Origin: a virus
DNA length: 64,000 nt
Direction: 5' to 3' (one strand)
IMG/VR virus record: IMGVR_UViG_3300027974_000021
Part shown: positions 23,020 to 43,341 of the stretch, piece after piece
How the letters are laid out: each line of letters opens with the position of its first letter
How positions within the stretch are numbered: position 1 is the stretch's first letter
Position numbers and translations under genes: made by a program
The notes under the pieces: generated by a model
Database searches by the model: none
Told to the model about the DNA's origin: nothing
Seen by the model: only the letters and a program-made list of their open reading frames with translations

Positions 23020-23022
23020 CCA

Positions 23023-23051
23023 TTTACATACAAGTATTTTTAGAGTATAAT
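23023..23051 (+). promoter_or_regulatory. Sigma70-like early/middle promoter
   Basis: TTTACA-N17-TATAAT. Confidence 0.75.
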
Positions 23052-23531
23052 ATGTCTATGATTATAGTATCAAATCATATTAATATGTCACATACTGATC
23101 CATTTAAAATTGATATGATTGAAAACGATTTAGAAGCTAACAGAACATCAAAGAACATTGTTCCTTTGTTTGGAAGCATATTTGATATTGAGAAAAAAGG
23201 TACCAAATATTCGCTTGTGAATAAAAACTGGAACAATCGTATCCATGGTAAAGTAATTAGTTATGATCGATCCTCTCCTAATTCTATCTTTTTTGAAATT
23301 CAAACAAAATACGTTCCACCAATTTCTTTTTTTGATTATCTAGTTGAATCAAAAAGATATTCAATTGAAGCAACTTATGGTACTGAAAAAACAAACTATG
23401 AAGATTTTAATGAGTTTGGTTTTGTTGGTGCTTATGATAATGGCGATGATGAGTGTTGGGAAACTACACCACATAATTTAAAAGATGATTTAATACCACC
23501 ACATTTATTGGCTTTATATAATATAGTATGA
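23052..23531 (+). CDS. Hypothetical protein (true start may be 23058)
   Basis: ORF track; FQTKYVPP...GFVG resembles a ferredoxin-like phage domain. Confidence 0.5.
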   Translation: MSMIIVSNHINMSHTDPFKIDMIENDLEANRTSKNIVPLFGSIFDIEKKGTKYSLVNKNWNNRIHGKVISYDRSSPNSIFFEIQTKYVPPISFFDYLVESKRYSIEATYGTEKTNYEDFNEFGFVGAYDNGDDECWETTPHNLKDDLIPPHLLALYNIV

Positions 23532-24385
23532 GAAAATCTGTAATAGTTAAATCTGCAATCGGTCGAGTATATCATGTCGAAGAAAATGATACTTTCTATG
23601 GTTCAAGATTAAAGAGCAGTGGATATCAAATAAACAATTTAAGATATTTTAGATCATTAACACCAAACGCAAGAACAATTATTGATGTAGGTGGTCATTT
23701 AGGAACTAATACTATTGAATATGCCACGTGGGCTAAGAATGTAAAAACGTTTGAACCAACATCATATTTAAGAAAATGGTTATTAGAAAATATTGAGTTG
23801 AATAAAAATGCTAAAACTAATGGCAAAGGTTGGTTTAAATTAGCTGATAAATCTTATGCTCCTATTTTAATGACTGGTGATATAGAAGTATTTCCATATG
23901 CTTTAAGTGATAGTGAGGGAGAACAAATTTTAAATACACTTACTTGTGCTTCTGGACATAATCATATAGAATTAGATTTTAATGGAAAAAAATTAACAAA
24001 AAAAGGTTGGGTTAAAAAATCTGAAAGCAAATCTACAAGAACTATTAAAGAAAAGATATTAACAAGAACATTAGATAGTTTTAAATTTACAAAAGTAGAT
24101 GGAATTAAAATAGACGTAGAAGGATTAGAATTTCAAGTTATAAAGGGTGCTATTAATACAATTAAAAAGTATCGTCCAGTGATTCAAACTGAAATTCAAA
24201 TAGGAATGTGTAGACGTGCTGGTTATGAAGCTAATGAATTATGCGAATACTTAGCAAATATGGATTATGTACAGACACTTTCTGATGGAACAGTTATAAA
24301 CCCATCAAATGTTTTTAGTGAAGTCAAAGCTAAAATAGATAGATTTTGGATACCAAAAGAAAAATTAAAAAATGATATTAATTGA
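23528..24385 (+). CDS. FkbM-family SAM-dependent methyltransferase
   Basis: IDVGGHLG, FEP, ALSD, IKIDVEGLEFQVIKGA...PVIQTE. Confidence 0.85.
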   Translation: MRKSVIVKSAIGRVYHVEENDTFYGSRLKSSGYQINNLRYFRSLTPNARTIIDVGGHLGTNTIEYATWAKNVKTFEPTSYLRKWLLENIELNKNAKTNGKGWFKLADKSYAPILMTGDIEVFPYALSDSEGEQILNTLTCASGHNHIELDFNGKKLTKKGWVKKSESKSTRTIKEKILTRTLDSFKFTKVDGIKIDVEGLEFQVIKGAINTIKKYRPVIQTEIQIGMCRRAGYEANELCEYLANMDYVQTLSDGTVINPSNVFSEVKAKIDRFWIPKEKLKNDIN

Positions 24386-25238
24386 TTATTCACAAGTAGC
24401 AATCGCAAATATACTTTCTTTTAAACAAGATGTTCAAAAAGGAAGACCAATGCAAGAAGTATCTAATATTATTCGTCATGCGATACTCTCTACTATTAAA
24501 TATTATAAGAAGAAATTCTCAGCAGATTATGGTGATTTAGTTATATGTGCTGATGGTAAAGACGTTTGGAGAAAAGTAGAATTTCCTTTATATAAAGCAC
24601 ATCGTAAGAAAGATAGAGAAGCAGATCCAGTTGATTGGAAACTTATTTTTGAAACTATGTCTGATGTAAGAGAAGATTTAGTTAAATATTTTCCTTATAA
24701 AGTATTACATATTAATCATGCTGAAGCAGATGATGTAATTGCTACACTAGTGAAAGAAAGACCTTTAGAAAAACATATGATTGTTTCTTCTGATAAAGAT
24801 TTTAAACAATTACAAAAATTTGGAAACGTTGAACAATATTCACCATTACTTAAAAAACAAGTAAATAAATCATCAGTAAGAGAAGCTGAGCAATATATAA
24901 TAGAACATATAGTAAGAGGTGACTCTGGAGATGGTGTTCCAAATGTACTTTCACCTGATGATATCTTTAACAAAGATGAAAGACAAAAACCAATTACTAA
25001 AAAGATATTAAATAATTTCTTAGAAAAAGGTTTCAATGCTTGTGAAAACGATGAGCAGAAAAAAAACTATTTAAGAAACCAAAAATTAGTATGTCTTGAC
25101 TCTATACCTAAAAATATAGCAGATGATATACTAAATGCTTATAATAACATAAAACCAACAGGAGATAAAATGACAGTATACAACTATTTAATTGAAAAAC
25201 GTTGTAGTCTATTACTCCAAGAAATAGAGGAGTTTTAA
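24372..25238 (+). CDS. rnh: RNase H / 5'-3' exonuclease (T4 rnh)
   Basis: ILIDYSQ, YKAHR, EADDVIA, SSDKDFKQL, GDSGDGVPN. Confidence 0.93.
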   Translation: MILIDYSQVAIANILSFKQDVQKGRPMQEVSNIIRHAILSTIKYYKKKFSADYGDLVICADGKDVWRKVEFPLYKAHRKKDREADPVDWKLIFETMSDVREDLVKYFPYKVLHINHAEADDVIATLVKERPLEKHMIVSSDKDFKQLQKFGNVEQYSPLLKKQVNKSSVREAEQYIIEHIVRGDSGDGVPNVLSPDDIFNKDERQKPITKKILNNFLEKGFNACENDEQKKNYLRNQKLVCLDSIPKNIADDILNAYNNIKPTGDKMTVYNYLIEKRCSLLLQEIEEF

Positions 25239-28033: not shown

Positions 28034-28166
28034 AAAGAAAAAATTAAGTAAAAAATGGGTATTGGATGGTTTTTATTTTGATGGTAAAGATCACTTTGAT
28101 TTATATAAAGATCATAGTGGTAATGTAAAACGTGTTAAACAAAAGAAAAAATTAAAAGTTTGTTAA
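28026..28166 (+). CDS. Small basic hypothetical protein (46 aa)
   Basis: Manual translation MNKKKKLSKKWVLDGFYFDGK...; fills the gap and is coupled to the next ATG. Confidence 0.5.
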   Translation: MNKKKKLSKKWVLDGFYFDGKDHFDLYKDHSGNVKRVKQKKKLKVC

Positions 28167-28708
28167 TGCAAAAAGAACCAGTTAAATGGTATGATCGCTC
28201 GGCTGATTTTAGAAGACTTTCAGATATTGAAATGAGTGAATGCTTACGCAAATTAAAAATTTCTAAATTACATGTTAATATTCAAGACGATATGTATATG
28301 TGTCTTGCTAATTTAAGAGATTTAGGTTCTATTTCATCATTTAATAATGAATTAAAAGAAAACTTCTTTGTTTATTGTAAAGAAGTTGGCATAGATATTG
28401 AAAACTATAAAAGATCAGATGAAAAAAGAGTTATGACTGCTTCTTTTGCTAGTATAATATGGGATAAAATAGTTAAATTAATAAATGCTAATGAAGCAGA
28501 TTCTTCTAAAAGAGTTAAGGGTATAAAAAAACTAGTTCTCTTTCGTTTATTACAAAAAGAATTACCAGATCTTGATAAGAAACATATTCATAAGAATGTA
28601 AAGAATAATATTAAATTAGGTGCTTTAGAATATCATCAACAATCAAAATCAAGTAAGTTAATTCGTAAAGGACAATACTGGAGCACGTATGTTAAAGTCA
28701 ATAAGTAA
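28166..28708 (+). CDS. Hypothetical protein
   Basis: ORF track; TAATG coupling. Confidence 0.55.
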   Translation: MQKEPVKWYDRSADFRRLSDIEMSECLRKLKISKLHVNIQDDMYMCLANLRDLGSISSFNNELKENFFVYCKEVGIDIENYKRSDEKRVMTASFASIIWDKIVKLINANEADSSKRVKGIKKLVLFRLLQKELPDLDKKHIHKNVKNNIKLGALEYHQQSKSSKLIRKGQYWSTYVKVNK

Positions 28709-29534
28709 TTTTAGTTGGGAAGAATTTTCAACACGTAATAATTTATATTTTCGTGTTGCTTATTATATTTTTGTACATGTATTAGCATTACTCGCATTTA
28801 AATATGCTACACTAACTACATTCTTTACATTTATATTATTCTGGTGGTTTGGTGCTTGGGCTGTATCAGGTTATACTCATAGAACACTATCACATAAATC
28901 TATTGTAGTTAAGAATAAATATTTAGAGCATTTAAGTAATATATTTGCTATATACGCAGGGATTGGCACACCTTTAGGATGGGCAGCATTGCATCGTATG
29001 CATCACACTCATCTTGATACTGAGTTAGATCCACATAGCCCACATAGAATAGGGTTTTGGAGATCTTATTTACATTTATGGGATTGGCGTAAAGAAGATG
29101 TACCATTAAAATATACAGCAGGATTATTTCGTAATCGTATTGCTGTTTATTATCACAATCGTGCTTTACCTACTTTATTATTATTCTGGTTTGGTTTATT
29201 CTTTATATCAGAATTTTTAAAAGTAAATCTAGGACTATTAGGTGGATTAGAAGTTTGTATTGGTGCAGCATTAGCTGTAGTTGCAGGATTGCATGGTATG
29301 GGTGTGACAAATGCAGTAAGTCATAGTCACGAAATACCAAAACAAGTTGTGTCTCTTGATCCAATCGCAGGAGCATTCGTTAATTGGGGCGAAGGAAATC
29401 ATGAATATCATCACGCAAAACCAATGAATTATAGTTTTGGTGATGGCATATCAGATCCTGTCGCAAGAACTGCCGAATTATTCGAAAAATTAGAATTAGT
29501 TCAAATCAACAGAACGAGTGAATTAAATGGATAA
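28689..29534 (+). CDS. Membrane fatty-acid (delta-9-type) desaturase
   Basis: Three His boxes HRTLSH, HRMHH and HEYHH; DPHSP; TM segments. Confidence 0.9.
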   Translation: MLKSISNFSWEEFSTRNNLYFRVAYYIFVHVLALLAFKYATLTTFFTFILFWWFGAWAVSGYTHRTLSHKSIVVKNKYLEHLSNIFAIYAGIGTPLGWAALHRMHHTHLDTELDPHSPHRIGFWRSYLHLWDWRKEDVPLKYTAGLFRNRIAVYYHNRALPTLLLFWFGLFFISEFLKVNLGLLGGLEVCIGAALAVVAGLHGMGVTNAVSHSHEIPKQVVSLDPIAGAFVNWGEGNHEYHHAKPMNYSFGDGISDPVARTAELFEKLELVQINRTSELNG

Positions 29535-29682
29535 AACATTATATAAAACTGGTATATTTTTTGCTGTAATAACAATTATAGCATTTTTTTTAATTTCGTG
29601 TACAACTACTCCAACGGAAACTACAAAACCGATGGAAAAAGTTATAGATGGATTTAAAAGTATAATCATACCAACACCATAA
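29527..29682 (+). CDS. Small lipoprotein (51 aa)
   Basis: Manual translation with lipobox LISC. Confidence 0.5.
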   Translation: MDKTLYKTGIFFAVITIIAFFLISCTTTPTETTKPMEKVIDGFKSIIIPTP

Positions 29683-29692
29683 TCCGTTTTAT

Positions 29693-29769
29693 TCACTCGT
29701 AGTTCAATTGGATAGAATACCAGTCTACGAAACTGGGGGTTGCAAGTTCGAGTCTTGCCGAGTGAGCCA
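29693..29769 (+). tRNA. tRNA-Arg(ACG)
   Basis: Acceptor TCACTCG/CGAGTGA, anticodon arm CCAGT-CTACGAA-ACTGG, T-loop TTCGAGT, encoded CCA. Confidence 0.92.
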
Positions 29770-29776
29770 AATGATA

Positions 29777-29784
29777 ACTAAATA
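29777..29784 (+). promoter_or_regulatory. T4-type late promoter (ACTAAATA)
   Basis: Motif lies 6 nt before the ATG at 29791. Confidence 0.5.
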
Positions 29785-29790
29785 GATTAT

Positions 29791-30462
29791 ATGAATTTTG
29801 TTGTAAATTTACCACATATACAATGCTGGATTAAAAAAGAGTTTCTCTATGACTTTAAAAAAGGTTTCGGAGAATATGTTCCATGTACTTGGGTGACTCT
29901 TAAATCTATTCCACGTAGAGCATTCTACATTGAGAGTTATTTACCAGAGTATGGAGCACTCTATGATAAACTTCCTATAAGTGCTTATGTGTGGAAAACT
30001 GATATTGATTTAGATAAACAACTTCCTTTAGATTTTTTACAACTATGGGATGGTTTTAGTTATCATATTACAGTAATTGAAAAACAATACCTACAACATT
30101 CTCGTGTTGAGATTATATTAAGAGATGGTTCACGTATGGGTGGTGAATATCTATTTACAGTAGATAGTGCTCATGCTGATCCAAATATTCCAAACGTCAC
30201 CGAGTCAGAAGTTCCTACAGAACACAAATCACACAATATTGGTAAATTAGATAATGGGCAATGGTTCGCTCAGCCAAATAATCGTATGCTTTTCTTCGAA
30301 TCAAGTGCAAATAAAGCTAAAGGTTTAAATGTGCCTGATTTTAAAGTAAGTTCAAAATATTATCATTGTGAACAGAATCCAAAATGGGTATTCGGAGATT
30401 CCGATGAATACTTTTATCCATCATATGAAATCAACAAGAAACCTACTAAAAATGATAATTAA
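29791..30462 (+). CDS. Conserved aquatic-phage hypothetical protein
   Basis: LPEYGALYDKLPISA, QLWD, YLFTVD, EHKSHN and QPNNR motifs. Confidence 0.7.
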   Translation: MNFVVNLPHIQCWIKKEFLYDFKKGFGEYVPCTWVTLKSIPRRAFYIESYLPEYGALYDKLPISAYVWKTDIDLDKQLPLDFLQLWDGFSYHITVIEKQYLQHSRVEIILRDGSRMGGEYLFTVDSAHADPNIPNVTESEVPTEHKSHNIGKLDNGQWFAQPNNRMLFFESSANKAKGLNVPDFKVSSKYYHCEQNPKWVFGDSDEYFYPSYEINKKPTKNDN

Positions 30463-31135
30463 TCATAAAGCATTAGATTCTAAACTTTGTCCTTTACCAT
30501 TAACTGCAGAGGGTATGCAGTGGATGGAAAATGATAATACATATGAAAAACAAACTAAATTATGGGTGCCAATTAAATACCATAATTCTGATTTTTTAAA
30601 ATGGACTATGAATATAGGATTAAGTATTACAGACATAGAATTATTTTGTAATCCAGCAAATCATTCAATGCCTGTACATCTAGATGGAAATGAATTACAT
30701 GATGAATTTAAATTGAATTATGCATTTAATCCAAGAGGAAATAGTTTAATGAATTGGTTTAAACCAAAACCTAACACAATTGGCAAACGTGAGGGTGTTA
30801 GATATAAAAATAAAGATGAGAGAAATATTGATACAGCAGATTTATATTGGTATCCTGAAGAAGTTGATTTAATTGAAAGTCATGATGTTGAAGTTTCAAT
30901 TGTTCAAGTAGGACAACCACATAACGTGACAACTACTCAACATTCTAGAAAATGTTTGTCTTGTGTATTTGATAAGAGACTTGTAAATGGTTATACTACA
31001 AACGAAGATATTATATTAAAAGAAGATCTACACATAATTGCGAAAAGAAGAGATGAAGCTGTTGGTAAAAAAATACTTCAAGATATTGTTCCTATGTGGG
31101 AAGCAATAGATTTATTTAAAAAATATATTATATGA
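30452..31135 (+). CDS. Cupin/2OG-Fe(II) dioxygenase-like protein
   Basis: HxD (VHLDG), PHNV, RKCLS. Confidence 0.65.
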   Translation: MIINHKALDSKLCPLPLTAEGMQWMENDNTYEKQTKLWVPIKYHNSDFLKWTMNIGLSITDIELFCNPANHSMPVHLDGNELHDEFKLNYAFNPRGNSLMNWFKPKPNTIGKREGVRYKNKDERNIDTADLYWYPEEVDLIESHDVEVSIVQVGQPHNVTTTQHSRKCLSCVFDKRLVNGYTTNEDIILKEDLHIIAKRRDEAVGKKILQDIVPMWEAIDLFKKYII

Positions 31136-31305
31136 GTCAAGGAACAATTATAGAAACTGCAGCGAATACAGTTTATTGTGATGGCTACGATTCTAGTGTA
31201 GATGACGATACTCATCCAAGAGTATTTTATACATTAAAAGAATATAAAGATGGTGAAACAAAAGCTGTTTGTTTTTATTGTGGTACAATTTTTAAAAAAA
31301 TATGA
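31132..31305 (+). CDS. zf-CHCC zinc-finger protein (57 aa)
   Basis: Manual translation VYCDG...HPRVFY...VCFYCGTIF; ATGA overlaps at both ends. Confidence 0.8.
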   Translation: MSQGTIIETAANTVYCDGYDSSVDDDTHPRVFYTLKEYKDGETKAVCFYCGTIFKKI

Positions 31306-31895
31306 AAAACATTTATTGCGCAAATTTAAAACTTCCAGTTAATGATGTGATGATAGATAAAAATTGGTTAAGTAAAATGCCAAACAAAGGACACTTTCCT
31401 ATACCAGAAAAAGAAGTAAATCCTGAATTATTAGATTTTTTTGAAGGAAAGGGGATGTACTTAAAAAATGCTGATGTGTTTTGTTCTCCTCCAGGATTTT
31501 ATTTACAAATACATATCGATGGAACTGATTTAGGAACAAATTCGTGTGCGATTAACTGGCAATATTGTTCTGAAAAAGGATCTTATATGCAATGGTGGAA
31601 TCCAAAACCTGAATTCGCAAATAAAAATATTATAGAGCCAGAAAGTTTTAGTGAAAATAGTTATAAAATAGAAACAACACCATATGCTTATGCTTGGACT
31701 CCTGAAGAATGTGATTTGGTTAATACTTCTGAAGTAGGTTTTCCATCATTAGTAAATATAGGTGTGCCACACTCAATGAAAAATGATACAAAAGTTAATC
31801 GATATGCGATTAGTTTGACATGGAAACGTTATAATGGTTCAACAGTAGAATGGGATTATGTATATGAGAAATTACAGTCATACGTTGTGGCGTGA
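31302..31895 (+). CDS. Cupin/2OG-Fe(II) dioxygenase-like protein
   Basis: IHIDG, LVNIGVPHSM, RYAIS; paralog of its neighbours. Confidence 0.68.
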   Translation: MKNIYCANLKLPVNDVMIDKNWLSKMPNKGHFPIPEKEVNPELLDFFEGKGMYLKNADVFCSPPGFYLQIHIDGTDLGTNSCAINWQYCSEKGSYMQWWNPKPEFANKNIIEPESFSENSYKIETTPYAYAWTPEECDLVNTSEVGFPSLVNIGVPHSMKNDTKVNRYAISLTWKRYNGSTVEWDYVYEKLQSYVVA

Positions 31896-32484
31896 ATTAA
31901 ATCTGCCAATATCACCGATTAAAAAGGATTATGTATTTCCTAAAGAATCAGATCAAGATATAGTAGCAAAATACACAGACCATTATCATGAAAGACATTT
32001 AATTAATCAAGATTTAATTGATTGGGCTAAGTCTATAGATCTTGGTGTACTTCGTATTGAAAGGTTTTCATCTAAGCCAGACTATCGAATGTATGTTCAC
32101 ACTGATAATGATGATTGGATAGATGATTTAGTTAAAATTATTTGGTGTTATTGCCCCACTGACGATCATACAATGAATTGGTATGATATAAAAGATACCA
32201 ATTATTACGATGTTGAAACAAATAACGATTCTGGTCCCACGATGCACTTTCCAGATTTTAATATTGATAAGTTAATTACGAGTACTACTATTAAGAATAA
32301 TCCTATATTGGCTAATACTGGGCGACCACACAATATTCAGAATGGAAAAAGTTATAGACATGTAGTTTGTGCTTGGTTTCACGACTTAAAATCAAATGAA
32401 AAAATTACAGTTGATGGAAATATTTACCCAAAACCTCTTCAATGGGACGTTGCAGTGTCAAGAATGAGAAACATTATTTTATAA
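31858..32484 (+). CDS. Cupin/2OG-Fe(II) dioxygenase-like protein
   Basis: VHTD, LANTGRPHNI, RHVV. Confidence 0.65.
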   Translation: MYMRNYSHTLWRELNLPISPIKKDYVFPKESDQDIVAKYTDHYHERHLINQDLIDWAKSIDLGVLRIERFSSKPDYRMYVHTDNDDWIDDLVKIIWCYCPTDDHTMNWYDIKDTNYYDVETNNDSGPTMHFPDFNIDKLITSTTIKNNPILANTGRPHNIQNGKSYRHVVCAWFHDLKSNEKITVDGNIYPKPLQWDVAVSRMRNIIL

Positions 32485-32487
32485 ATA
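32480..32487 (+). promoter_or_regulatory. T4 late promoter TATAAATA
   Basis: Perfect gp55 consensus 17 nt upstream of the fabF-like ATG. Confidence 0.6.
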
Positions 32488-32504
32488 GAATTAAGATTTT
32501 AATT

Positions 32505-33683
32505 ATGAAACCAGTATATGTAGTTGGATATGGAATGATCGACAGTCTTGGGAATAACCCAAAAGATTGTTTTGATAAGATGTTAGATAATAAAGATTAT
32601 TCTTCTGATATACCTGAATTGAAAGCAGAGAACGCAAAAGTTTTTCGTGGTGCTATATTCAATCCTGACGATTGCATTATACCAAAAGATTTTGACATTA
32701 AGATGCTTCGTTCAATGACGAATGCACAAAAGATGATGCTTCATGCAGTTGATGCAGCATTAAAAATGTCAAACCTACCCCATCATTATGATGTTGCAAC
32801 TCTTCTTTCAACAGTTTCAAACGATACTGAATTTTTAGATGAGTTGTACTTACCTACAAAGAATCATAAAAGAGTAAATCCTAGAAAATCAGCAAATCGT
32901 ATTCCAGATATGGGATGTTCGCATATTTCATCTCATTATAAATTTATGGGATTAAGTGCAGCAACATTCGCAAGTTGTTCTACTGGTCTTGTGACTATTG
33001 ATTATGGAATGCGATTAGTTGATGAATATGAATATGTAATTGTCGGAGGATCTGACGCAGGTTGTTTTCCGATGGCAATTAAATATTTTAATACATTAGG
33101 TGCTGTAGGAAATTACAGTATGCCTTTTGATAATGATCGTACAGGATTTTTAATGGGTGATGGTTGTGGTGTTTTAATATTACAATCAGAAGCAATGGTT
33201 AAAAAGTACGGAAGTAAGGTATTCGCTAAGTTATATCCTTGTGGTATGGCGAGCGATGCTTTAGATATGACAAGCCCAGCCAATGATGGCAGAGGTGCTC
33301 GTATAAGCATGTCTAAAGCAACAAAAGATATTGGAGAAATAGATTTTGTGTGTGCGCATGCAACATCTACACCAGTTGGTGATCCAATAGAATACGAGAC
33401 TGTAGTTAGTTTCTTGGGAGAAAAACCTATTTGGGCACCGAAGTCAAAAATAGGACATACCCTTGCAGCTGCTGGAGTGTTAGAGTGTATATATGCGATT
33501 CTTTCAATGCAAAGAGGAATCATACCACATATACAAAATTTAAAAAGTGCTTTTTGTGACACTAAAAATATTTTAGTTCGCGAGAATTTAAATACTAACA
33601 AAAAAGTTTTGCGAACATTAAATAACTCATTCGGATTTGGGGGAAAATGTATGTCGCAAGTAATAGAGGTAAATAAAGAATGA
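32505..33683 (+). CDS. fabF: Beta-ketoacyl-ACP synthase II (FabF/FabB-like)
   Basis: Catalytic Cys (ASCSTG), His (AHATST), KSKIGHT and NSFGFGG. Confidence 0.9.
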   Translation: MKPVYVVGYGMIDSLGNNPKDCFDKMLDNKDYSSDIPELKAENAKVFRGAIFNPDDCIIPKDFDIKMLRSMTNAQKMMLHAVDAALKMSNLPHHYDVATLLSTVSNDTEFLDELYLPTKNHKRVNPRKSANRIPDMGCSHISSHYKFMGLSAATFASCSTGLVTIDYGMRLVDEYEYVIVGGSDAGCFPMAIKYFNTLGAVGNYSMPFDNDRTGFLMGDGCGVLILQSEAMVKKYGSKVFAKLYPCGMASDALDMTSPANDGRGARISMSKATKDIGEIDFVCAHATSTPVGDPIEYETVVSFLGEKPIWAPKSKIGHTLAAAGVLECIYAILSMQRGIIPHIQNLKSAFCDTKNILVRENLNTNKKVLRTLNNSFGFGGKCMSQVIEVNKE

Positions 33684-33832
33684 CAACAATAATACTTTTA
33701 TCAATCGGTGTTATAATCGGTTGGACTTATAAGCCAGCATTTGCTGATAATTTTATAAACAAATCTAAAGAAATTTTAAGTGGTGTTTTAACTTACTTAA
33801 AAGCTCTTGTTAAAAAAGGAGACAATAAGTAA
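33680..33832 (+). CDS. Small membrane protein (50 aa)
   Basis: Manual translation MTTIILLSIGVIIGW...; ATGA overlap with fabF. Confidence 0.5.
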   Translation: MTTIILLSIGVIIGWTYKPAFADNFINKSKEILSGVLTYLKALVKKGDNK

Positions 33833-33833
33833 A

Positions 33834-34250
33834 ATGGCACAAGTAGAAACAAACACAAAAACGGAATTGACAAATTCCAAGGAGATTCCCCAACGTCAAA
33901 CATCTTGGGGTTATCATTTAATTATTGATGCAGCAGGTTGCACTAAAAACTTTCAAGACCCAGTGGTTTTGAAAACTTTTTTAAATGACCTTTTAGTTCG
34001 CATCGACATGAACGCATGGGGTGAGCCATGGATAACTCACTTTGCTGAAAAACCAGAGATCGCTGGATGGACAGTAATACAAGCATTGACTACAAGTTCA
34101 TTAACAATACACTTTTTAGATAATAATGGTGATTGTTATTTTGACTTGTTCTCATGCAAAACTTTTGATATTGAAATGGTGAAAACTATGATAAAAGAAT
34201 ATTTTGATCCTATTTCAATGAAGGATCAATATTTTGTTAGACAAGCATAA
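33834..34250 (+). CDS. speD: Pyruvoyl-dependent decarboxylase, SpeD (AdoMetDC) family
   Basis: WGYHLIIDAAGC, GWTVIQALTTSSLTIHF and DLFSCKTFD motifs. Confidence 0.8.
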   Translation: MAQVETNTKTELTNSKEIPQRQTSWGYHLIIDAAGCTKNFQDPVVLKTFLNDLLVRIDMNAWGEPWITHFAEKPEIAGWTVIQALTTSSLTIHFLDNNGDCYFDLFSCKTFDIEMVKTMIKEYFDPISMKDQYFVRQA

Positions 34251-34719
34251 TATAACACCAAAAGAAGCATTACAAGAGTGGTTGGCGAGACTTAAAATAC
34301 CTCGCCAAGCACTTGATGGTCATTCTATATGTCCATTTAGTAAAGGAGTCAGTGTACCTACACCTGAAGACTTAAACATCGATAACTCTTTTCGTCCTCC
34401 TGCATTATGGGAGATTAAAAAAATTAAAATTTACAACATAATCAATCCGAATATTACACCAACAGAATTAGATGAATGGTGTGATTATTACATAAACAAA
34501 TATGAAAATTATATGTTTATAGCAGACCATAAAGACAGAGATACACACATTAATGGAATTAAAACAAATAATGGTTATTTTAACTTTATGTTAGTTCAAA
34601 GTTTGCCTGAATTGAATGAAGCACGTAGAAATTTATTAAAAACAACCAACTATTATAGTTTCTGGGATCCTGAATATTTAAAAGATACTTGGAATAATAG
34701 TTTTGATAAAGAAGAATAA
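34234..34719 (+). CDS. Hypothetical protein (CPF motif)
   Basis: ICPFSK...LVQSLPELNEARRNL...YY pattern common in accessory regions of these phages. Confidence 0.55.
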   Translation: MLDKHNITPKEALQEWLARLKIPRQALDGHSICPFSKGVSVPTPEDLNIDNSFRPPALWEIKKIKIYNIINPNITPTELDEWCDYYINKYENYMFIADHKDRDTHINGIKTNNGYFNFMLVQSLPELNEARRNLLKTTNYYSFWDPEYLKDTWNNSFDKEE

Positions 34720-34721
34720 TT

Positions 34722-35804
34722 ATGAGTGTTTGGACAGATTATGATCCGTTGAAAGAAATTATTATAGGAAGTATTCCTACACCTGAATACTTTTCAAACT
34801 TTCTAAAACCAGATATCCTAGAAGTCCTTACACCCATTATAAAAGAAACACATGAAGACTTAAACAAGTTTGCTAATATATGTATTTCTTTAGGAGTAAA
34901 AGTATATAGACCAAAAGTGTTAGACTTTCGTGAACCACTTAGACTTCCAGGATTTAAAATTAAGAATCCAATATCACCTTTAGTGCCAAGAGATAGTTAT
35001 CTTGTTTATGGTAATACAATTTATTCTTCATATACTAGTATGGCTGATAGATGGTTAGAGTCATTATCATTCTACGATATCTTTATGGAAAAGTTTGTAG
35101 AAGGATATAATTGGTTATCAACACCAGTACCACAATTAAAAGACTTTAGACCTGACACTCAATGGTACACGCATGGTGGCGATCGTTATGGAGTAGAATT
35201 AAAAGATAAAATATTATGGCATTGTGCTACTATGTACAAATGTGGTGATAGTTTAATTATTAATTCTTCGGGTCCAGGAACTAAATTAGGATATGACTGG
35301 ATGCAACGTAATATACCTGATACTAAATTTATAAAGAATTCAAATAAGCCACACAAAGGATGGGGACATATAGATCAATTTTTCTTTCAAACGGATGATA
35401 ATACAGTATTTTGTACTAATAAAAATTATGTCCCAGATGTATTCCTAAATAATAGTAAGTTCAAAGTACATGAATTTGGTCACTTAATTAAAGATGTAGA
35501 TATGAAACAATATGAACATCGTCTAGCACAAACAGATGGTAAATATAGTATTGAATGGATTGATGAGTGGATAGATGAATGGAGAGGTTTCGCACAAGAA
35601 GTAGCATTTGATAGTAATGTAGTTGTAGTTGATAGTAAAAATGTAATTGTCACTAATGAACAACCAGCATTATCAAATTGGTTTAAAGAATTTGGTATAA
35701 CACTACATCCTGTTAATTTAAGACAGGGTGGTTTTTGGGATGGTGGTGTTCACTGTTTATCGCTTGATATTAAAAGAGATGGAGAGAAAAGAAATATCGT
35801 ATGA
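34722..35804 (+). CDS. Amidinotransferase (Gly/inosamine-phosphate amidinotransferase, pentein fold)
   Basis: DPLKEIIIG, PRD, GHID and GGVHCLSLD with the catalytic Cys. Confidence 0.85.
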   Translation: MSVWTDYDPLKEIIIGSIPTPEYFSNFLKPDILEVLTPIIKETHEDLNKFANICISLGVKVYRPKVLDFREPLRLPGFKIKNPISPLVPRDSYLVYGNTIYSSYTSMADRWLESLSFYDIFMEKFVEGYNWLSTPVPQLKDFRPDTQWYTHGGDRYGVELKDKILWHCATMYKCGDSLIINSSGPGTKLGYDWMQRNIPDTKFIKNSNKPHKGWGHIDQFFFQTDDNTVFCTNKNYVPDVFLNNSKFKVHEFGHLIKDVDMKQYEHRLAQTDGKYSIEWIDEWIDEWRGFAQEVAFDSNVVVVDSKNVIVTNEQPALSNWFKEFGITLHPVNLRQGGFWDGGVHCLSLDIKRDGEKRNIV

Positions 35805-36799
35805 GAAAAATTTATAACTGGATTAATCCAACCTATTATGTAGATTATGATAAATTAAAGGATGTAATAGTTCCTTTGATGCAAGAAGATTTACGTGAAT
35901 GGATGATTAACAATCCGATCGAAACAAGCACTGAGTGTGCTTATGCTCCACCAGAAGAAGTAGAAGAAAAGATATTATCCAAAAAAGAAGAGTTGAAGGC
36001 ACATAAAAATCGAGCAATTGCTTATAAAGAAATTCTTACAGATGAAGCTGAAAGAAAACATTACAATGATTGGCGTTCTATTGATTTTCTTTATGAGTGT
36101 AAATGGAATAAAGAAGTTTTTAAAAGATCTTGGCAATTAATGTCTGAATGTAAAGGTATTAAACAAATCTTTATTAATTTTATAAAACCAAATGGAATTA
36201 TAACACCACATTTAGATACTTCTACTTGGGAAAAGATAGAAGAAGATTGGGGTTTGCCACTTTATTCATTAGAGGGTGGAAGTATTATTGCTACATTATT
36301 TACAGGTATGAAAAACAGAGAAGAAAAGACTGTTGGAATGAAAGTAAATGGTGTTTATAAGTTTCCATTAGCAGGAGAATTAGTTTGTTTTGATGGAAGA
36401 TGGAATGAACATCAAATGTGGAACAACACAAACGAGTGGAGAATTACAGCAGTAATAGATATTGATAGAAAATACTTTACTCAAGTGTTAGAGGATGTTG
36501 ATGAAGAAAAGAAAGAAATAAACAGACCAAAAGATAGTCTTACGATAACAGAAAATGCAACAATTAAATTTCAAAAATCTTTTAGTAAAGAAGAAGTAGA
36601 ATATTATTTAAATCATGGTTTAACTGAAAAAATAGAATTTTTAAAAGAAAAAATACTTTGGTTGAATGAATATTCTGGGCGTAAAATATACGCAGACCAT
36701 TTAGATGAAATTTCAACAACAACTTTTTTAAATGCTAATATAACAAAAATAGATATATATTTTAAAAATTATAAGGAATATTATGTACATAGCACCTAA
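35801..36799 (+). CDS. AspH/LpxO-like beta-hydroxylase with C-terminal extension
   Basis: FIKPNGIITPHLD...FDG..EHQMWN...WRITAVIDI. Confidence 0.75.
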   Translation: MRKIYNWINPTYYVDYDKLKDVIVPLMQEDLREWMINNPIETSTECAYAPPEEVEEKILSKKEELKAHKNRAIAYKEILTDEAERKHYNDWRSIDFLYECKWNKEVFKRSWQLMSECKGIKQIFINFIKPNGIITPHLDTSTWEKIEEDWGLPLYSLEGGSIIATLFTGMKNREEKTVGMKVNGVYKFPLAGELVCFDGRWNEHQMWNNTNEWRITAVIDIDRKYFTQVLEDVDEEKKEINRPKDSLTITENATIKFQKSFSKEEVEYYLNHGLTEKIEFLKEKILWLNEYSGRKIYADHLDEISTTTFLNANITKIDIYFKNYKEYYVHST

Positions 36800-37469
36800 T
36801 TCATATATTAATTATGTTCAATTATTAGATCATTATCCTAAATTAGTTGAGGATATGAATAAATGGCTTAATACACATACACCAGAAAGAGATTCAATTG
36901 CTGTATATTCTGATGATCCTGCAAATAAGTTTTTGTCCACTACAACAAACTTTGTAGAAAGCTGGACAACTGAAGAAGAAAAGCAACATCGTTATGATTG
37001 GAAATCTATTCCTGTGTTTTTTGAAAAAGCGTGGAACACAAAAGACTTTCCTAGATTTTCAGAATTTGGTAAAGATTTAAAAGGATTGAGACAATGTCTT
37101 ATTAATTTTATTGCTCCACGTGGTAAAATTACAATACATAAAGATCACGACAATTGGGGTAAGATGACAGAAGATTGGGGATTTAAGTGTGAAGGATATT
37201 CATTAGTTGCTACTTTAAAAACAGGAATGAAAAAAGCTACAGATAAAACAGTAGGAACATGTATTAGAGATATTAAAACTGGAACTGACACTTGGAGTTA
37301 TGCATTAGTAAATGAATTTGTTTGTTTTGATGGATTAAATTATAACCATGCAATTACTAACAATACAGATGAATGGAGAATTTCAGCAGTATTTGATATT
37401 GATAAAGAAAAATTTGATCCTAGTTTTGTTAAAACTGATAAACAAGTTTGTGATTATTATGTGGATTGA
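36783..37469 (+). CDS. AspH/LpxO-like beta-hydroxylase
   Basis: IAPRGKITIHKD...FDG..NHAITN...WRISAVFDI. Confidence 0.75.
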   Translation: MYIAPNSYINYVQLLDHYPKLVEDMNKWLNTHTPERDSIAVYSDDPANKFLSTTTNFVESWTTEEEKQHRYDWKSIPVFFEKAWNTKDFPRFSEFGKDLKGLRQCLINFIAPRGKITIHKDHDNWGKMTEDWGFKCEGYSLVATLKTGMKKATDKTVGTCIRDIKTGTDTWSYALVNEFVCFDGLNYNHAITNNTDEWRISAVFDIDKEKFDPSFVKTDKQVCDYYVD

Positions 37470-38142
37470 TGTAAAAAGATATAAAGATTATAAAAAATTA
37501 TTTGATTATCAAAATATTTTAAATCTAGACATAAAAAACTGGTTAAAAAACAATGATCCTATAAAGAATACAGAACCAGTTTATGAAGAAAGAGCAAGTA
37601 GTCAAGAGTCATATGGGAAACTTAATCCTGATGGTACTATAACTTCTATCAGTTCGAAGTTTAGTGAACCACCAGCAGATCCTACAAAGAATCCAGAAGA
37701 ATACGCACACAGAAAAGATTGGAGATGCGTAGGTGGGTTTTATGAACGTACATGGAACACAAAAATAATAAAAGAATCATTAAAAGCTTTAACTATGTTA
37801 AGTGGTTTAAAACAATTAAATATAAATTTTCTTTGTCCCTTTGGTAAAATAACTTCTCATTTAGACGATGGTGGGTGGAAAAAAATATCAGAAGATTGGG
37901 GTAAAGAAACTTACGGATATAGTATAGTACAAACAATTCAATCAGGTATGACTGAATCATCATCAGAGTTAGTTGGCATGCGTGTAAATGATGTTGATAA
38001 ATATCCATTAGTTGGAGAATTAGTTTGCTTTGATGGTATAAAAGGATTACATAGCATGTGGAATAATACAAATATATGGCGTATTACTGCTGTGTATGAT
38101 ATAGATATAAACGCATTTAATAAATATAGTATATGTGGATAG
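37459..38142 (+). CDS. AspH/LpxO-like beta-hydroxylase
   Basis: LCPFGKITSHLD...FDG..LHSMWN...WRITAVYDI; start moved to ATG 37459. Confidence 0.75.
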   Translation: MWIDVKRYKDYKKLFDYQNILNLDIKNWLKNNDPIKNTEPVYEERASSQESYGKLNPDGTITSISSKFSEPPADPTKNPEEYAHRKDWRCVGGFYERTWNTKIIKESLKALTMLSGLKQLNINFLCPFGKITSHLDDGGWKKISEDWGKETYGYSIVQTIQSGMTESSSELVGMRVNDVDKYPLVGELVCFDGIKGLHSMWNNTNIWRITAVYDIDINAFNKYSICG

Positions 38143-38720
38143 ACGCAACAAAATATAAACATTACGAAGTTCTTAAAACAAGTTTAATTCCTGCATTGGA
38201 GTTAGACTACAATAGATTCATTCGTAAATTTGATATTACAGAAACAGGTGTAAATGTATTTCGATTTGAATATCCTAATCGAGAAGACGATCATGCTGAT
38301 GATTGGTGGGCTATACCACTTATTCAAGGAGGTGAAGCAGTACCACCTTTAAGAAATCCATGGCAACATGCAACAGCAAGTTTAAAAGAAATTCCTGGAG
38401 TATTTCAATCAATCGTAAATTTTATAAAACCAAATGGTGGATTGCCAATGCATCATGACTTTGGTAGTTGGCAAAGAATAGAAGAAGCATTAGGTTATCC
38501 AGTAAAAGGATATACAATAGCTATTGGTATTGACATGCCATCAAACGATCCGAATATTTGTGGTATGGAATTTGAAAATGATACTTTTCCAAGAACTTAT
38601 GGAAATAAGGAAATAGTAGCATTTAATGGACGTGACTTTATGCATAAAGTATGGAATAAAACAGGAAATTGGCGTGTTTCTTGTGTAATTGATACTGATA
38701 TAAAGGATTGGAACAATTAA
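38133..38720 (+). CDS. AspH/LpxO-like beta-hydroxylase
   Basis: IKPNGGLPMHHD...FNG..MHKVWN...WRVSCVIDT. Confidence 0.75.
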   Translation: MWIDATKYKHYEVLKTSLIPALELDYNRFIRKFDITETGVNVFRFEYPNREDDHADDWWAIPLIQGGEAVPPLRNPWQHATASLKEIPGVFQSIVNFIKPNGGLPMHHDFGSWQRIEEALGYPVKGYTIAIGIDMPSNDPNICGMEFENDTFPRTYGNKEIVAFNGRDFMHKVWNKTGNWRVSCVIDTDIKDWNN

Positions 38721-38725
38721 AACCC

Positions 38726-38754
38726 TTTACATACAATAAAAAATATAGTATAAT
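38726..38754 (+). promoter_or_regulatory. Sigma70-like early/middle promoter
   Basis: TTTACA-N17-TATAAT. Confidence 0.75.
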
Positions 38755-38761
38755 ATAATCT

Positions 38762-39361
38762 ATGTGGCTTGGAAATCCTACATCTTATTCAAATTATAGT
38801 GCTTTAAGTGCTATGATGATTGCTTTAATGAGCGACTATGCTGAATGGCGAAGTCAAAGATCATTCGAAGATACAGTAAATGCTGACGATCGTTATTCTA
38901 TGCCTATTAATAATAGAGGTGGGTTTAAAGCATTACCATTGATTGATGCTCGTAAAATAAACGAACAATTAGAAGATAGATATCTTTGGAAACGTACTAC
39001 TACTCAATTCTATAATATTCCTGGAGCAATAGACTTATGTGTCAATATGATACGTCCAGGAAAAATGTTGCCAGTACATCACGATGGTTATGTTTGGGAT
39101 TGGATACGTCAAAGTATGGGAGATCCTACAATTGAAGGATATACTGTAAGTTTTGGTATTGATATACCTGAACCTGAAAAGCAAGCATTATTATTTGATG
39201 GTGAAAAGAAAATCTGGAAGACAGGTGAGTTTGTAGCATTTAACGGACACGATATTCAACACAGTTTAAAAAATGAAGCAACAAACCCAGAGCATTGGCG
39301 AGTGACGGCTGTAATGGAAATTGATAAAAAATATTTTAACAACTATTCTGTTGGTTTATGA
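38762..39361 (+). CDS. AspH/LpxO-like beta-hydroxylase
   Basis: IRPGKMLPVHHD...WKTGEFVAFNG..QHSLKN...WRVTAVMEI. Confidence 0.78.
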   Translation: MWLGNPTSYSNYSALSAMMIALMSDYAEWRSQRSFEDTVNADDRYSMPINNRGGFKALPLIDARKINEQLEDRYLWKRTTTQFYNIPGAIDLCVNMIRPGKMLPVHHDGYVWDWIRQSMGDPTIEGYTVSFGIDIPEPEKQALLFDGEKKIWKTGEFVAFNGHDIQHSLKNEATNPEHWRVTAVMEIDKKYFNNYSVGL

Positions 39362-39621
39362 GTTTAGATAACGATCAATTACAACAAGAAATTTACGATG
39401 ATATATTTAAGAATGCTATGGATCTTATAGTTAAACATTCAAGTAATTTAGAAGTTAATCAATTAGTTTCAAGTACGATGCTCGCAATAGCTATTCGTTT
39501 TTATAAATCAGCTTTAACTGATTTAGATTATCAAAAATTTTTAAATTCAATTATAGAAGTTGGACAAGAAGCAAGACCATTTGGTGTTGCTGAAATATTA
39601 CCAAAAAGAAAATTGAATTAA
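39358..39621 (+). CDS. Hypothetical protein
   Basis: ORF track; ATGA overlap. Confidence 0.55.
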   Translation: MSLDNDQLQQEIYDDIFKNAMDLIVKHSSNLEVNQLVSSTMLAIAIRFYKSALTDLDYQKFLNSIIEVGQEARPFGVAEILPKRKLN

Positions 39622-39655: not shown

Positions 39656-39760
39656 ATGACTCTTTTTGTTTATGAAGTAATAGTTCTTATTTTATCTGTT
39701 ATTATGTTAGGAATATCTGTTTTTTATATGTTTAAAATTGACAAAGCAAAGAAAAAATAA
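39656..39760 (+). CDS. Single-pass membrane micropeptide (34 aa)
   Basis: Manual translation MTLFVYEVIVLILSVIMLGISVFYMFKIDKAKKK; GAGGAGG SD; ACTAAATA at 39621. Confidence 0.6.
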   Translation: MTLFVYEVIVLILSVIMLGISVFYMFKIDKAKKK

Positions 39761-39775
39761 TTATTATTTTATACT

Positions 39776-42120: not shown

Positions 42121-43341
42121 ATGTACGAACTAAAAGAAATAAGTCCAGCAGAAAATCTTAAGAGAGTTATTAAGACTGATGGATATTGGGTACATTACGA
42201 GAATCGTACTAACTTAGAAGTACAGTCTGGTAATTGTTCGTTCACATTAGGTTATAATCATAAAGAATTAAAGAGTCTATTACCAACGAATGAGATTGAT
42301 TTTCTTCGTGGTAATAGTGGTGAGTCCGCAGAGCCTGTTGATCGTTTAAGTGAAACACTAACAAAAGAAGCTGGTATGGATGGCATCGCCTATGCTGTAT
42401 CTGGTTCAGATGGTAATGAGTGTGCTTTTTATATTAATGATTTATATTGGACTAATAAAGGTGAACCGAATCGAAGATATATAATTTCAATACCACCTTG
42501 TTATCATGGAACTACAGTTGTTTGTCGAAGTGCAAATAATGATATCGTAGAGAAAAGACAGAGTCGTTTTGTACCGATACGTGGAAGAACTTGGTACACA
42601 ACAGAAGATAGTATTGCGAACGAAACAAATGTACTCGAACAAATAATCGAAACATTTAAGAGTCGTAATGATATTGGTGCTATTTTAATTGAGAGTTATC
42701 CATGGAATAAAACAATTGCTCCATGGAGTCATAACTTCTATCAACTACTACGTGCAACTGCTACGTTATATGGTGCAAATTTAATCGTAGATGATATTGC
42801 AGGTTATGGTGGTAAGATAGGAACACTCTTTACTCATACAGCTTATAATATAAAACCTGATATGGTGACAATTGGTAAAGCACTTACAAATGGACTAATA
42901 CCATTATCAGCTTGTTTAATTAATGATAAAGTATTGAAACAAGTAAAGACTACATTTAATTGGGGGCATACTTGGCAACCGAATATGTATGGTGTGCGAG
43001 TAGCGAATCGTTGTATAGAGTTAATCAAAGAACGAATGGCATACTCGAAAGTAATCGAAAAGAATTTAAACGATATAGGTGATCGTTTAAAGAGTAAAGG
43101 ACTCGTGAGAAACGTAATTGGGAATGGAGTATGGAAGTCTTTTGTACCAGAACCAAATCCAATACCAATCTCGTTAGCTGAGATTGATAAAGCAGGAATG
43201 TCAGCAACAACGAACGAGAATACAATTAAGACAATTATACCACTAATTGCTGATGATATATACTTTGAAGAATTAGAAAAGCGATTAGAGGTTTGCTTTA
43301 CAAATATAAAAGAACAAAGAACACAAGGACTATTGATATGA
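42121..43341 (+). CDS. Class-III PLP-dependent aminotransferase (paralog of 21796..23019)
   Basis: MYELK/R start, QSGNxxFTLGY, SGSDGNE, YHGT, DDIAGYGGK, PDMVTIGKAL, WGHTWQP. Confidence 0.88.
   Translation: MYELKEISPAENLKRVIKTDGYWVHYENRTNLEVQSGNCSFTLGYNHKELKSLLPTNEIDFLRGNSGESAEPVDRLSETLTKEAGMDGIAYAVSGSDGNECAFYINDLYWTNKGEPNRRYIISIPPCYHGTTVVCRSANNDIVEKRQSRFVPIRGRTWYTTEDSIANETNVLEQIIETFKSRNDIGAILIESYPWNKTIAPWSHNFYQLLRATATLYGANLIVDDIAGYGGKIGTLFTHTAYNIKPDMVTIGKALTNGLIPLSACLINDKVLKQVKTTFNWGHTWQPNMYGVRVANRCIELIKERMAYSKVIEKNLNDIGDRLKSKGLVRNVIGNGVWKSFVPEPNPIPISLAEIDKAGMSATTNENTIKTIIPLIADDIYFEELEKRLEVCFTNIKEQRTQGLLI

Follow-up and report, generated by a model that had tools for sequence, protein, structure and literature searches.

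The 64-kb window of viral DNA analysed here (the whole stretch, from IMG/VR record IMGVR_UViG_3300027974_000021) covers bases 54052-118051 of a viral genome that is complete at 144,834 bp and has direct terminal repeats. In it the core genes rnh (RNase H) and denV enclose a dense block of biosynthetic and oxygenase genes. This block is probably a conserved auxiliary-metabolism island in which two separable modules abut in this lineage: a fatty-acid module anchored by a ketosynthase (module A, 28160-33683 of the window) and a virus-specific arginine/guanidino module anchored by an amidinotransferase (module B, 33834-39361). An original prediction, made from the letters of the window, had listed a desaturase, three cupins, a zf-CHCC protein, FabF, a SpeD-like decarboxylase, an amidinotransferase and five AspH-like hydroxylases as one coherent, translationally coupled island rather than scattered genes, and domain, motif, PDB and fold matches bear out that content. 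The island genes all lie on the + strand, nearly every junction is an overlap of 4-20 nucleotides (nt), and the block is conserved, co-inherited and operon-like, with gene order retained in relatives down to 46-75% protein identity. The further claim, that all of these genes build a single amino- or guanidino-acyl lipid, finds no support in the comparisons below. Overlooked at that stage were a tRNA-Arg (anticodon ACG) and the genes g04 and g12, as well as g03 and g10, two small hydrophobic, membrane-type open reading frames (ORFs) within the island.

Gene order across related viruses

Synteny was compared over about 125 related viral loci, which span only ±10 kb, so that linkage is undercounted. 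The ketosynthase-anchored set comprises 27 viral loci at 53-99% identity, mapped with one profile hidden Markov model per family; the alignment of the AspH-like family is too variable for a locus scan. The gene orders from RNase H to denV, with ketosynthase (KAS) identities in brackets, are as follows.

Window clade: g01, desaturase, tRNA, g04, cupin, zf-CHCC, cupin, cupin, KAS, SpeD, g12, amidinotransferase, five to six AspH-like genes, g19
L012 (87%): desaturase, six cupin genes, KAS, SpeD, g12, amidinotransferase, four AspH-like genes
L025 (75%): desaturase, a 1.8-kb gap, five cupin genes, KAS, SpeD, g12, amidinotransferase, four AspH-like genes
Marine relatives (53-58%): desaturase, two cupin genes, KAS, then MazG-like, NT5C, HD and cytochrome c genes
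L052 (56%; amidinotransferase 46%): desaturase, a 4.9-kb gap, five cupin genes, KAS, 6.5 kb of unrelated ORFs, SpeD, g12, amidinotransferase, three AspH-like genes

Direct adjacency of modules A and B is confined to the window clade, L012 and L025. The marine relatives carry module A with no SpeD, g12, amidinotransferase or AspH genes at the locus, and in L052 the two modules lie 6.5 kb apart; the modules have therefore been inherited separately. Within module B, the order SpeD, g12, amidinotransferase, AspH is retained at 39-55% identity in L051-L053, and within module A the ketosynthase is preceded by two to six cupin-like genes in the related phages mapped, with the desaturase 0-5 kb upstream of the cupin genes in every lineage with sufficient sequence. 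Synteny across related viruses had been put forward as a check on the original prediction, and it finds co-occurrence within each module and not across both, A and B being gained and lost separately.

Two further viral contigs, L019 (7841-9013) and L024, hold a ketosynthase at 53-57% identity, and within 6-10 kb of it neither a desaturase nor a cupin-like gene nor any gene of module B is present. Besides the MazG-like, NT5C, HD and cytochrome c genes, the marine relatives have AurF-like di-iron oxygenase genes downstream of the ketosynthase (L026, 11389-16977).

Module B: amidinotransferase, SpeD-like decarboxylase, g12 and the AspH-fold array

33834 to 34250, + strand: g11, SpeD-like pyruvoyl decarboxylase (PF02675, 51.7 bits, 1.3e-13)
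34234 to 34719, + strand: g12, small alpha/beta protein (N-terminal motif G-x-x-[IV]-C-P-F, near-invariant)
34722 to 35804, + strand: g13, L-arginine:X amidinotransferase, the anchor of the module (PDB matches)
35801 to 36799, + strand: g14, AspH-fold hydroxylase, its oxygenase domain followed by a C-terminal extension of some 110 aa (PF05118, 24.4 bits)
36783 to 37469, + strand: g15, AspH-fold hydroxylase paralogue (family alignment)
37459 to 38142, + strand: g16, AspH-fold hydroxylase paralogue (family alignment; true start at MWI...)
38133 to 38720, + strand: g17, AspH-fold hydroxylase paralogue (PF05118, 29.0 bits; AlphaFold2 model)
38762 to 39361, + strand: g18, AspH-fold hydroxylase paralogue (family alignment), preceded by the only intergenic gap of the array

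Judged from sequence, g13 is unambiguously an amidinotransferase. Its full-length similarity to solved structures in the PDB is best for StrB1 (1bwd, 5e-24) and includes SxtG (6u1r), HsvA (5wpi) and AGAT (1jdw), down to 1e-17, and its catalytic His and C-terminal Cys align with those of the solved amidinotransferases. Within the family D176, H216 and C345 are invariant in 25 sequences, and the Pfam model PF02274 is reached at an E-value of 0.19 only. The family profile gathers 233 protein clusters, and the subfamily at 39% identity or more is found in 256 viral stretches, including contigs of 225-270 kb. Among 185,579 cellular species genomes the best amidinotransferase is about 26% identical, the matches being ordinary enzymes of Streptomyces, Pseudomonas and others, and by this sequence criterion the subfamily is virus-specific in the collections searched. 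The only cultured-phage homologue of g13, at 26% identity, is that of Campylobacter phage CP220 (69923-82966), whose operon combines a PAP2 phosphatase gene with two glycosyltransferase-like and five radical-SAM genes and represents a different tailoring island.

The partners of the amidinotransferase were counted in 65 new viral loci and in 25 lineages dereplicated at 70% identity, the latter including the window clade and its relatives.

g12: beside the amidinotransferase in 46 of 65 new loci, nearly always directly upstream; adjacent in 19 of 25 lineages
Class-III aminotransferase: 38 of 65 new loci; in the locus in 12 of 25 lineages and adjacent in 9
SpeD-like gene: 25 of 65 new loci; 14 of 25 lineages
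AspH-like genes: 8 of 65 new loci; nearby in 8 of 25 lineages
Desaturase: 2 of 65 new loci; 4 of 25 lineages
Ketosynthase: 0 of 65 new loci; 3 of 25 lineages

The core of module B (SpeD-like gene, g12 and amidinotransferase, frequently joined by a class-III aminotransferase) is a virus-specific unit present on hundreds of aquatic phage contigs. The SpeD-like protein g11 has the processing motif T-T-S-S in place of the canonical E-S-H. Among the SpeD-like proteins linked to the amidinotransferase the form T-T-S-[S/N/H] is common, and the processing Ser is kept in 28 of 29. Phage SpeD homologues studied by Li et al. (2023) are pyruvoyl ornithine or arginine decarboxylases derived from S-adenosylmethionine decarboxylase (AdoMetDC), named SpeDC and SpeDA (PMC9992855, PMC10407285); the freshwater-myophage homologues characterised act on ornithine and the pelagiphage one on arginine (PMC9992855), and no spermidine synthase is noted for the pelagimyophage group (PMC7029224). 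By analogy with these enzymes, g11 is a candidate ornithine/arginine decarboxylase.

The g12 family counts 361 representatives at E ≤ 0.001 and is marked by a near-invariant Trp and by the near-invariant Cys-Pro of its N-terminal motif. The AlphaFold2 model of g12 reaches a predicted local distance difference test (pLDDT) score of 93 and has no Foldseek match in the PDB, where no sequence match is found either, and a word-seeded protein search for a wider family returns close relatives only. In P0184, a metagenome representative protein, an AdoMet_dc domain whose site reads E-T-S-H, near the canonical form, is naturally fused to a g12-family domain.

Downstream of the amidinotransferase, g14 to g18 are five clear paralogues in the family alignment. 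The PF05118 cut-off of 22.6 bits is exceeded by g14 and g17, while g15 and g18 score below it and g16 is unmatched; throughout the family H107, D109, H171 and R181 are invariant in 36 sequences. AspH itself uses two His ligands. The AlphaFold2 model of g17 (pLDDT 95) has the human AspH catalytic domain as its best PDB fold, with a template modelling (TM) score of 0.70 and an E-value of 2e-8 against at most 0.55 for the next families, and the superposition covers the whole protein. A Tet-like identity, suggested by a weak match (E 0.12), was dropped once the fold search gave AspH. PDB sequence searches with a cupin-like or AspH-like profile yield nothing useful, and BLAST and hhalign detect no relation between the two families. 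The start of g16 is placed at 37459 because the family N-termini align at MWI, which leaves an apparent membrane segment upstream of the start; after this correction none of g14 to g18 has a hydrophobic segment and all are predicted to be soluble.

The array is variable in its details and restricted in its setting. AspH-like copies vary from five to six between near-identical relatives (L007, L009, L010, L011 and L013 compared with window positions 35801-39361), and the extension of g14 is also present in the L012 orthologue and not in that of L025. In some relatives a cupin-like copy lies inside the AspH array. The island's AspH subfamily is found only beside the amidinotransferase, the search returning 25 clusters that are all close relatives, and no cultured-phage member was found.

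Class-III aminotransferases occur twice in the window outside the island, where the original prediction had correctly placed them together with an FkbM methyltransferase.

42121 to 43341, + strand: class-III (omega) aminotransferase (PF00202), 6.3 kb downstream of g13
21796 to 23019: class-III aminotransferase, second copy (PF00202), 11.7 kb upstream of g13

The two match PF00202 at E-values of 1e-40 and 7e-47, are 31% identical to each other and are generic omega-transaminases. Their orthology to the amidinotransferase-adjacent aminotransferases of other lineages is unsupported, at 21-36% identity. The stretch upstream of the island that holds the second copy (21796-25238) continues with a 159-aa gene without assigned identity, the FkbM-family methyltransferase gene and the T4 RNase H gene.

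Module A: desaturase, cupin-like proteins and ketosynthase

28689 to 29534, + strand: g02, Δ9-type membrane fatty-acid desaturase, loosely linked to the module (His boxes, SCD1 match)
30452 to 31135, + strand: g05, cupin-like protein of Fe(II)/2-oxoglutarate (2OG)-oxygenase type (H-x-D...H motif)
31132 to 31305, + strand: g06, small zf-CHCC zinc-finger protein (PF10276, 7.4e-8)
31302 to 31895, + strand: g07, cupin-like oxygenase paralogue (H-x-D...H motif)
31858 to 32484, + strand: g08, cupin-like oxygenase paralogue (H-x-D...H motif)
32505 to 33683, + strand: g09, FabF-like beta-ketoacyl synthase II, the anchor of the module (PF00109 and PF02801)

The ketosynthase, whose true start is at 32505, aligns with FabF structures in the PDB at 1e-40, better than with FabB at about 1e-29, and 19 distinct relatives all share its Cys-His-His triad and gate Phe. 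It is about 28% identical to bacterial FabF and scores 211.2 bits against the NCBIfam FabF equivalog TIGR03150, below the cut-off of 493.75, so that on sequence grounds g09 is best described as a divergent KAS-II-like enzyme rather than an assured FabF orthologue. In cultured phage records the best matches reach at most 32% identity and no genuine cultured phage has a close relative; most of these matches look like bacterial contamination of phage records. No acyl carrier protein (ACP) is matched by PF00550 in the complete 144.8-kb genome at E-values up to 1, and the ketosynthase must therefore use host ACP.

The desaturase g02 has the three His boxes HRTLSH, HRMHH and HEYHH, aligns with stearoyl-CoA desaturase SCD1 structures in the PDB at 4e-5 and shows four hydrophobic segments, as expected of a Δ9 desaturase; NCBIfam DesA is matched weakly and Pfam FA_desaturase is not matched. 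Lipid desaturases are also carried by cyanophages. Between desaturase and ketosynthase, the cupin-like proteins g05, g07 and g08 are paralogues in which the H-x-D...H motif and a downstream Arg are invariant across an 18-sequence family alignment. The family has no Pfam or PDB sequence match; in a protein-atlas search with g07 the cupin-like proteins fall into virus-only families, the nearest named family being Asp_Arg_Hydrox at 0.87, a lead only. The ORF of g05 opens at 30368, and its probable start at 30452 is taken from the L012 orthologue. The zinc-finger gene g06 is confined to the window clade.

A possible guanidino-amine pathway and its alternatives

In module A, an intact elongating ketosynthase without an ACP of its own next to an O2-dependent Δ9 desaturase points most simply to a change in host acyl chains, and the two enzymes would alter the length and unsaturation of host fatty acids during infection. 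In module B, the amidinotransferase would transfer the amidino group of L-arginine to an amine with release of L-ornithine, and the decarboxylase would convert ornithine (or arginine) to putrescine (or agmatine), thereby removing the by-product and perhaps supplying the acceptor amine. Amidinotransferases such as AGAT and StrB1 release ornithine, and phage SpeD homologues decarboxylate ornithine or arginine; the pair is therefore chemically compatible. Its products could be agmatine- or arcaine-like compounds, and the resulting guanidino-amine could then be oxidised by g12, possibly as a thiolate-heme oxygenase, and by the AspH-type hydroxylases. It is a tentative proposal, and one that may well prove wrong, that module B is a virus-specific pathway whose product, formed in the infected cell, is an N- or C-hydroxylated guanidino-polyamine not known before and without cellular counterpart. 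With similar reserve, this pathway of hundreds of aquatic phages, from 145-kb pelagimyophage-like genomes to contigs of 225-270 kb, might combine a SpeD-derived decarboxylase, g12 as a new small thiolate-heme oxygenase and the amidinotransferase, with an omega-aminotransferase or AspH-type hydroxylases added in many lineages.

The idea of a heme enzyme comes from two families with a Cys near the N-terminus. The members of cytochrome P422 (formerly DUF6875) are small thiolate-heme oxygenases whose heme-binding motif, RxGxVCP, is N-terminal (bioRxiv 10.64898/2025.12.11.692455), and AglA, of the YqcI/YcgG family, is a thiolate-heme guanidine N-hydroxylase with its axial Cys near the N-terminus (PMC12866846). 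A small thiolate-heme oxygenase is a reasonable but unproven lead for g12. The YqcI/YcgG model PF08892 is not matched by g12 at E-values up to 10, and hhalign against two genuine YqcI/YcgG members gives 0.5% probability; DUF6875 is touched weakly by 3 of 92 g12-family members.

Several observations tell against the two-module island and the chemistry proposed for it. Counts from the ±10-kb loci understate linkage, and in the window clade, L012 and L025 the modules abut with overlapping genes, leaving room for co-transcription and for some functional link. The cupin-like proteins of module A are predicted oxygenases by motif. Homologues of g12 and of SpeD each occur alone in some cultured phages. 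For the heme idea, AglA (9ub3) is the top hit and the one outlier among 48,161 chains in a VIA-align search with the g12 model, at a weak Z-score of 5.5 and a root-mean-square deviation of 4.1 over 140 residues. PF21780 (DUF6875) is matched neither by g12 of the window nor in five phage genomes, and hhalign of the g12 family with a genuine Streptomyces DUF6875/P422 member is likewise weak (E 5e-4, 31% probability) over 31 N-terminal columns, an alignment that spans the Trp and the Cys-Pro-Phe of g12. Finally, the substrates of AspH itself are proteins, and a small molecule need not be what the arrays act on.

In another explanation, the decarboxylase and amidinotransferase work on arginine and ornithine and module B only raises the ordinary host supply of polyamines, as putrescine or agmatine, while g12 and the oxygenase arrays just happen to lie next to them and modify host or virion proteins by hydroxylation, in the manner of AspH, ribosomal oxygenases and prolyl hydroxylases. 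The decarboxylase activities of phage SpeD homologues fit this explanation, as does the formation of putrescine via agmatine in the likely host group (PMC9992855). It also accommodates the AspH fold of g17, the presence of AspH-like genes in just 8 of 25 amidinotransferase lineages, and the copy-number changes of AspH and cupin genes in near-identical relatives, including the cupin inside the AspH array, which are typical of fast-evolving paralogue arrays. However, a simple supply of putrescine needs no amidinotransferase, g12 is tightly tied to that enzyme and is fused to SpeD in P0184, and the AspH subfamily, found nowhere else in 25 clusters and in no cultured phage, recurs beside the amidinotransferase in several distant lineages. 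Such a supply role is considered rather unlikely.

A streptidine-like logic, in which a class-III aminotransferase and the amidinotransferase turn a carbonyl of a sugar, or of another precursor of a macromolecule, into an amine and then into a guanidine for virion, DNA or cell-surface decoration, is improbable. StrB1, the inosamine-phosphate amidinotransferase of streptomycin synthesis, is the best PDB match of g13, the loci of 12 of 25 lineages include a class-III aminotransferase, and an FkbM methyltransferase is encoded in the window. Nevertheless, no glycosyltransferase, sugar-nucleotide enzyme or kinase was found in the block, the aminotransferases are omega-transaminases of the ArgD/BioA/ornithine type and not of the DegT sugar type, those of the window lie 6-12 kb off and share only 21-36% identity with the copies adjacent to the amidinotransferase in other phages, and the link to SpeD suggests amino-acid or polyamine substrates.

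The single pathway of the original prediction, in which ketosynthase and desaturase would set the acyl chain, decarboxylase and amidinotransferase would make the head group, and LpxO/OlsC-like enzymes would hydroxylate the chain, so that an amino- or guanidino-acyl lipid, or else an acyl-amine attached to the virion, is built or remodelled, can draw on the abutting, overlapping genes of the window clade, L012 and L025, on the presence of lipid hydroxylases in the AspH family and on a faint match of g14 to OlsC (E 0.0035), but it is very improbable given that the modules occur apart, that the ketosynthase is absent from all 65 further amidinotransferase loci, that no ACP is encoded and no acyltransferase or ligase joining an acyl chain to an amine is recognised among the annotated genes, and that the fold of g17 is nearest to a protein hydroxylase. 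The proposed LpxO-like character of the hydroxylases fails in particular: among curated lipid hydroxylase models the best score, g14 against OlsC, is 16.6 bits with a cut-off of 450, LpxO is unmatched, and the proteins are predicted to be soluble. LpxO and OlsC are membrane-associated enzymes.

Promoter-type motifs and the timing of expression

32480 to 32487, + strand: TATAAATA, a perfect T4-late-type motif that overlaps the stop codon of g08 and lies 17 nt ahead of the ketosynthase ATG

Late-promoter motifs had been predicted directly in front of two sub-operons, and both are present: TATAAATA before the ketosynthase, and ACTAAATA at 29777, where it begins 8 nt past the tRNA-Arg and lies 6 nt from the g04 ATG. 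Their significance differs. The first is strongly depleted, with 4 copies in the window compared with 15.8 expected and 7 in the 145-kb genome; before the ketosynthase it is kept only at 92% ketosynthase identity or more, being doubled in two such loci. L012, L025 and the marine relatives lack it, and in them the ketosynthase simply comes after the cupin genes. The second occurs at chance frequency in the window (7 versus 8.1 expected). Across the genome, only about a quarter of such motifs stand in front of a start codon, the background being 8.5%. Late expression from the ketosynthase onward in the window clade is, on these sequence features, possible and not established.

Other signals are found in the gaps of the block. 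A sigma-70-like TTTACA-17-TATAAT at 38726-38754, in the gap before g18, is near-consensus at 11 of 12 positions, and a second near-consensus site of this type (11 of 12) lies at 39738-39767 in the gap before denV; sigma-70-like and terminator-like sites in the block occur at chance frequency overall. The motifs CTAAATA and NATAAATA stand before start codons at about three times background, often 5-12 nt from the ATG, which is odd for a promoter, and the enrichment may reflect AT-rich translation-start regions.

The phage and the remaining genes of the island

The genome is that of a T4-like myophage, with genes for NrdA, NrdB, RNase H, denV and proteins of the baseplate wedge and hub, with a GC content of about 30% and nearly all genes on the + strand in the window. 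It has no psbA and is therefore not a cyanophage. For the freshwater pelagimyophages of group PMP-D, speH, fabF, stearoyl-CoA desaturase and a 2OGFeDO protein are listed as unique to these phages, a divergent AspH-type hydroxylase, bS21 and peptide deformylase are named as core genes, and Ca. Fonsibacter is the presumed host (Zaragoza-Solas et al. 2020, PMC7029224). The gene set of the present phage (fabF, stearoyl-CoA desaturase, speH, divergent AspH-type hydroxylase and bS21) agrees with this one-sentence description, and the source is, by gene content, probably an uncultured freshwater T4-like myophage of this 'fonsimyophage' kind. Exact copies of island proteins are found on many metagenome contigs of about 145 kb, and the phage is therefore common. 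Among 50,697 phage records no nucleotide match to the whole block is found by megablast.

28160 to 28708, + strand: g01, 182-aa protein overlapping the desaturase start by 20 nt
29693 to 29769, + strand: tRNA-Arg (anticodon ACG, ARAGORN), inside the island between desaturase and g04
29791 to 30462, + strand: g04 (phrog_3704, 4e-86)
39358 to 39621, + strand: g19, 87-aa protein closing the block in the window clade and L012

The g01 protein has no match to Pfam, NCBIfam or PHROG, and its gene adjoins the desaturase in the window clade and L012. The 60-nt core of the tRNA-Arg has zero exact matches among the 185,579 species genomes. The family of g04, phrog_3704, is a widespread marine T4-like phage gene found in 114 cultured cyanophage and pelagiphage records, where it is labelled 'PurM' or 'ferredoxin', yet neither domain is present in g04 and the labels are mistaken. 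In HTVC008M the homologue sits between nrdA and nrdB. At the present locus g04 is confined to close relatives and is not island-specific, and its distribution indicates a gene relocated into the island in the closest relatives alone.

Significance

No published account was found of the conserved SpeD/g12/amidinotransferase unit, of its restriction to viruses or of its split from the ketosynthase module; single genes have been listed (PMC7029224) and phage SpeD-derived decarboxylases are already known (PMC9992855). The unit would fall within the arginine/polyamine auxiliary metabolism of phages. Phage polyamine genes have so far been studied enzyme by enzyme, and the phage "SpeD" is now placed in a conserved multi-gene unit that is common in lakes and oceans and restricted to viruses in the collections searched. 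If a distinct guanidino compound is made, abundant phages of streamlined bacterioplankton would divert host arginine nitrogen to a virus-specific metabolite, with relevance to infection physiology and to dissolved organic nitrogen. For biochemical work, module B is a defined set of genes, about 5.5 kb in length, that can be expressed. The separation of the two modules is also a caution that adjacent phage auxiliary genes need not form a single pathway.

Comparison with known systems

In module A, the phage ketosynthase keeps the motifs and triad of bacterial FabF (KAS II), and the three His boxes of Δ9 acyl desaturases such as SCD1 and DesC are present in g02. The genes fabF and desaturase, described as unique to freshwater pelagimyophages (PMC7029224), are here present in marine relatives too, and that description makes no mention of an amidinotransferase, g12, paralogue arrays, clustering or modular structure. 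The AspH-fold hydroxylases keep the classical H-x-D...H triad and have neither a TPR domain nor a membrane segment, and g17 shares the fold of human AspH; the models of LpxO and OlsC, of the same Pfam family, are not matched by them. The amidinotransferase has full-length similarity to StrB1, SxtG, HsvA and AGAT, its cellular relatives being at most about 26% identical. The Cys-Pro motif of the g12 family, a candidate for thiolate-heme binding, is at the same place as the N-terminal axial Cys of P422 and AglA. The closest parallel for g11 lies in the SpeDC/SpeDA enzymes of LBP, UCP01-04 and HTVC201P, which like g11 are class-1b AdoMet_dc homologues with a processing serine and no spermidine synthase partner. 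An amidinotransferase is mentioned in neither of the papers describing them (PMC9992855, PMC10407285), and g11 differs from these enzymes in its T-T-S-[S/N/H] motif and in belonging to a conserved unit with g12 and the amidinotransferase.

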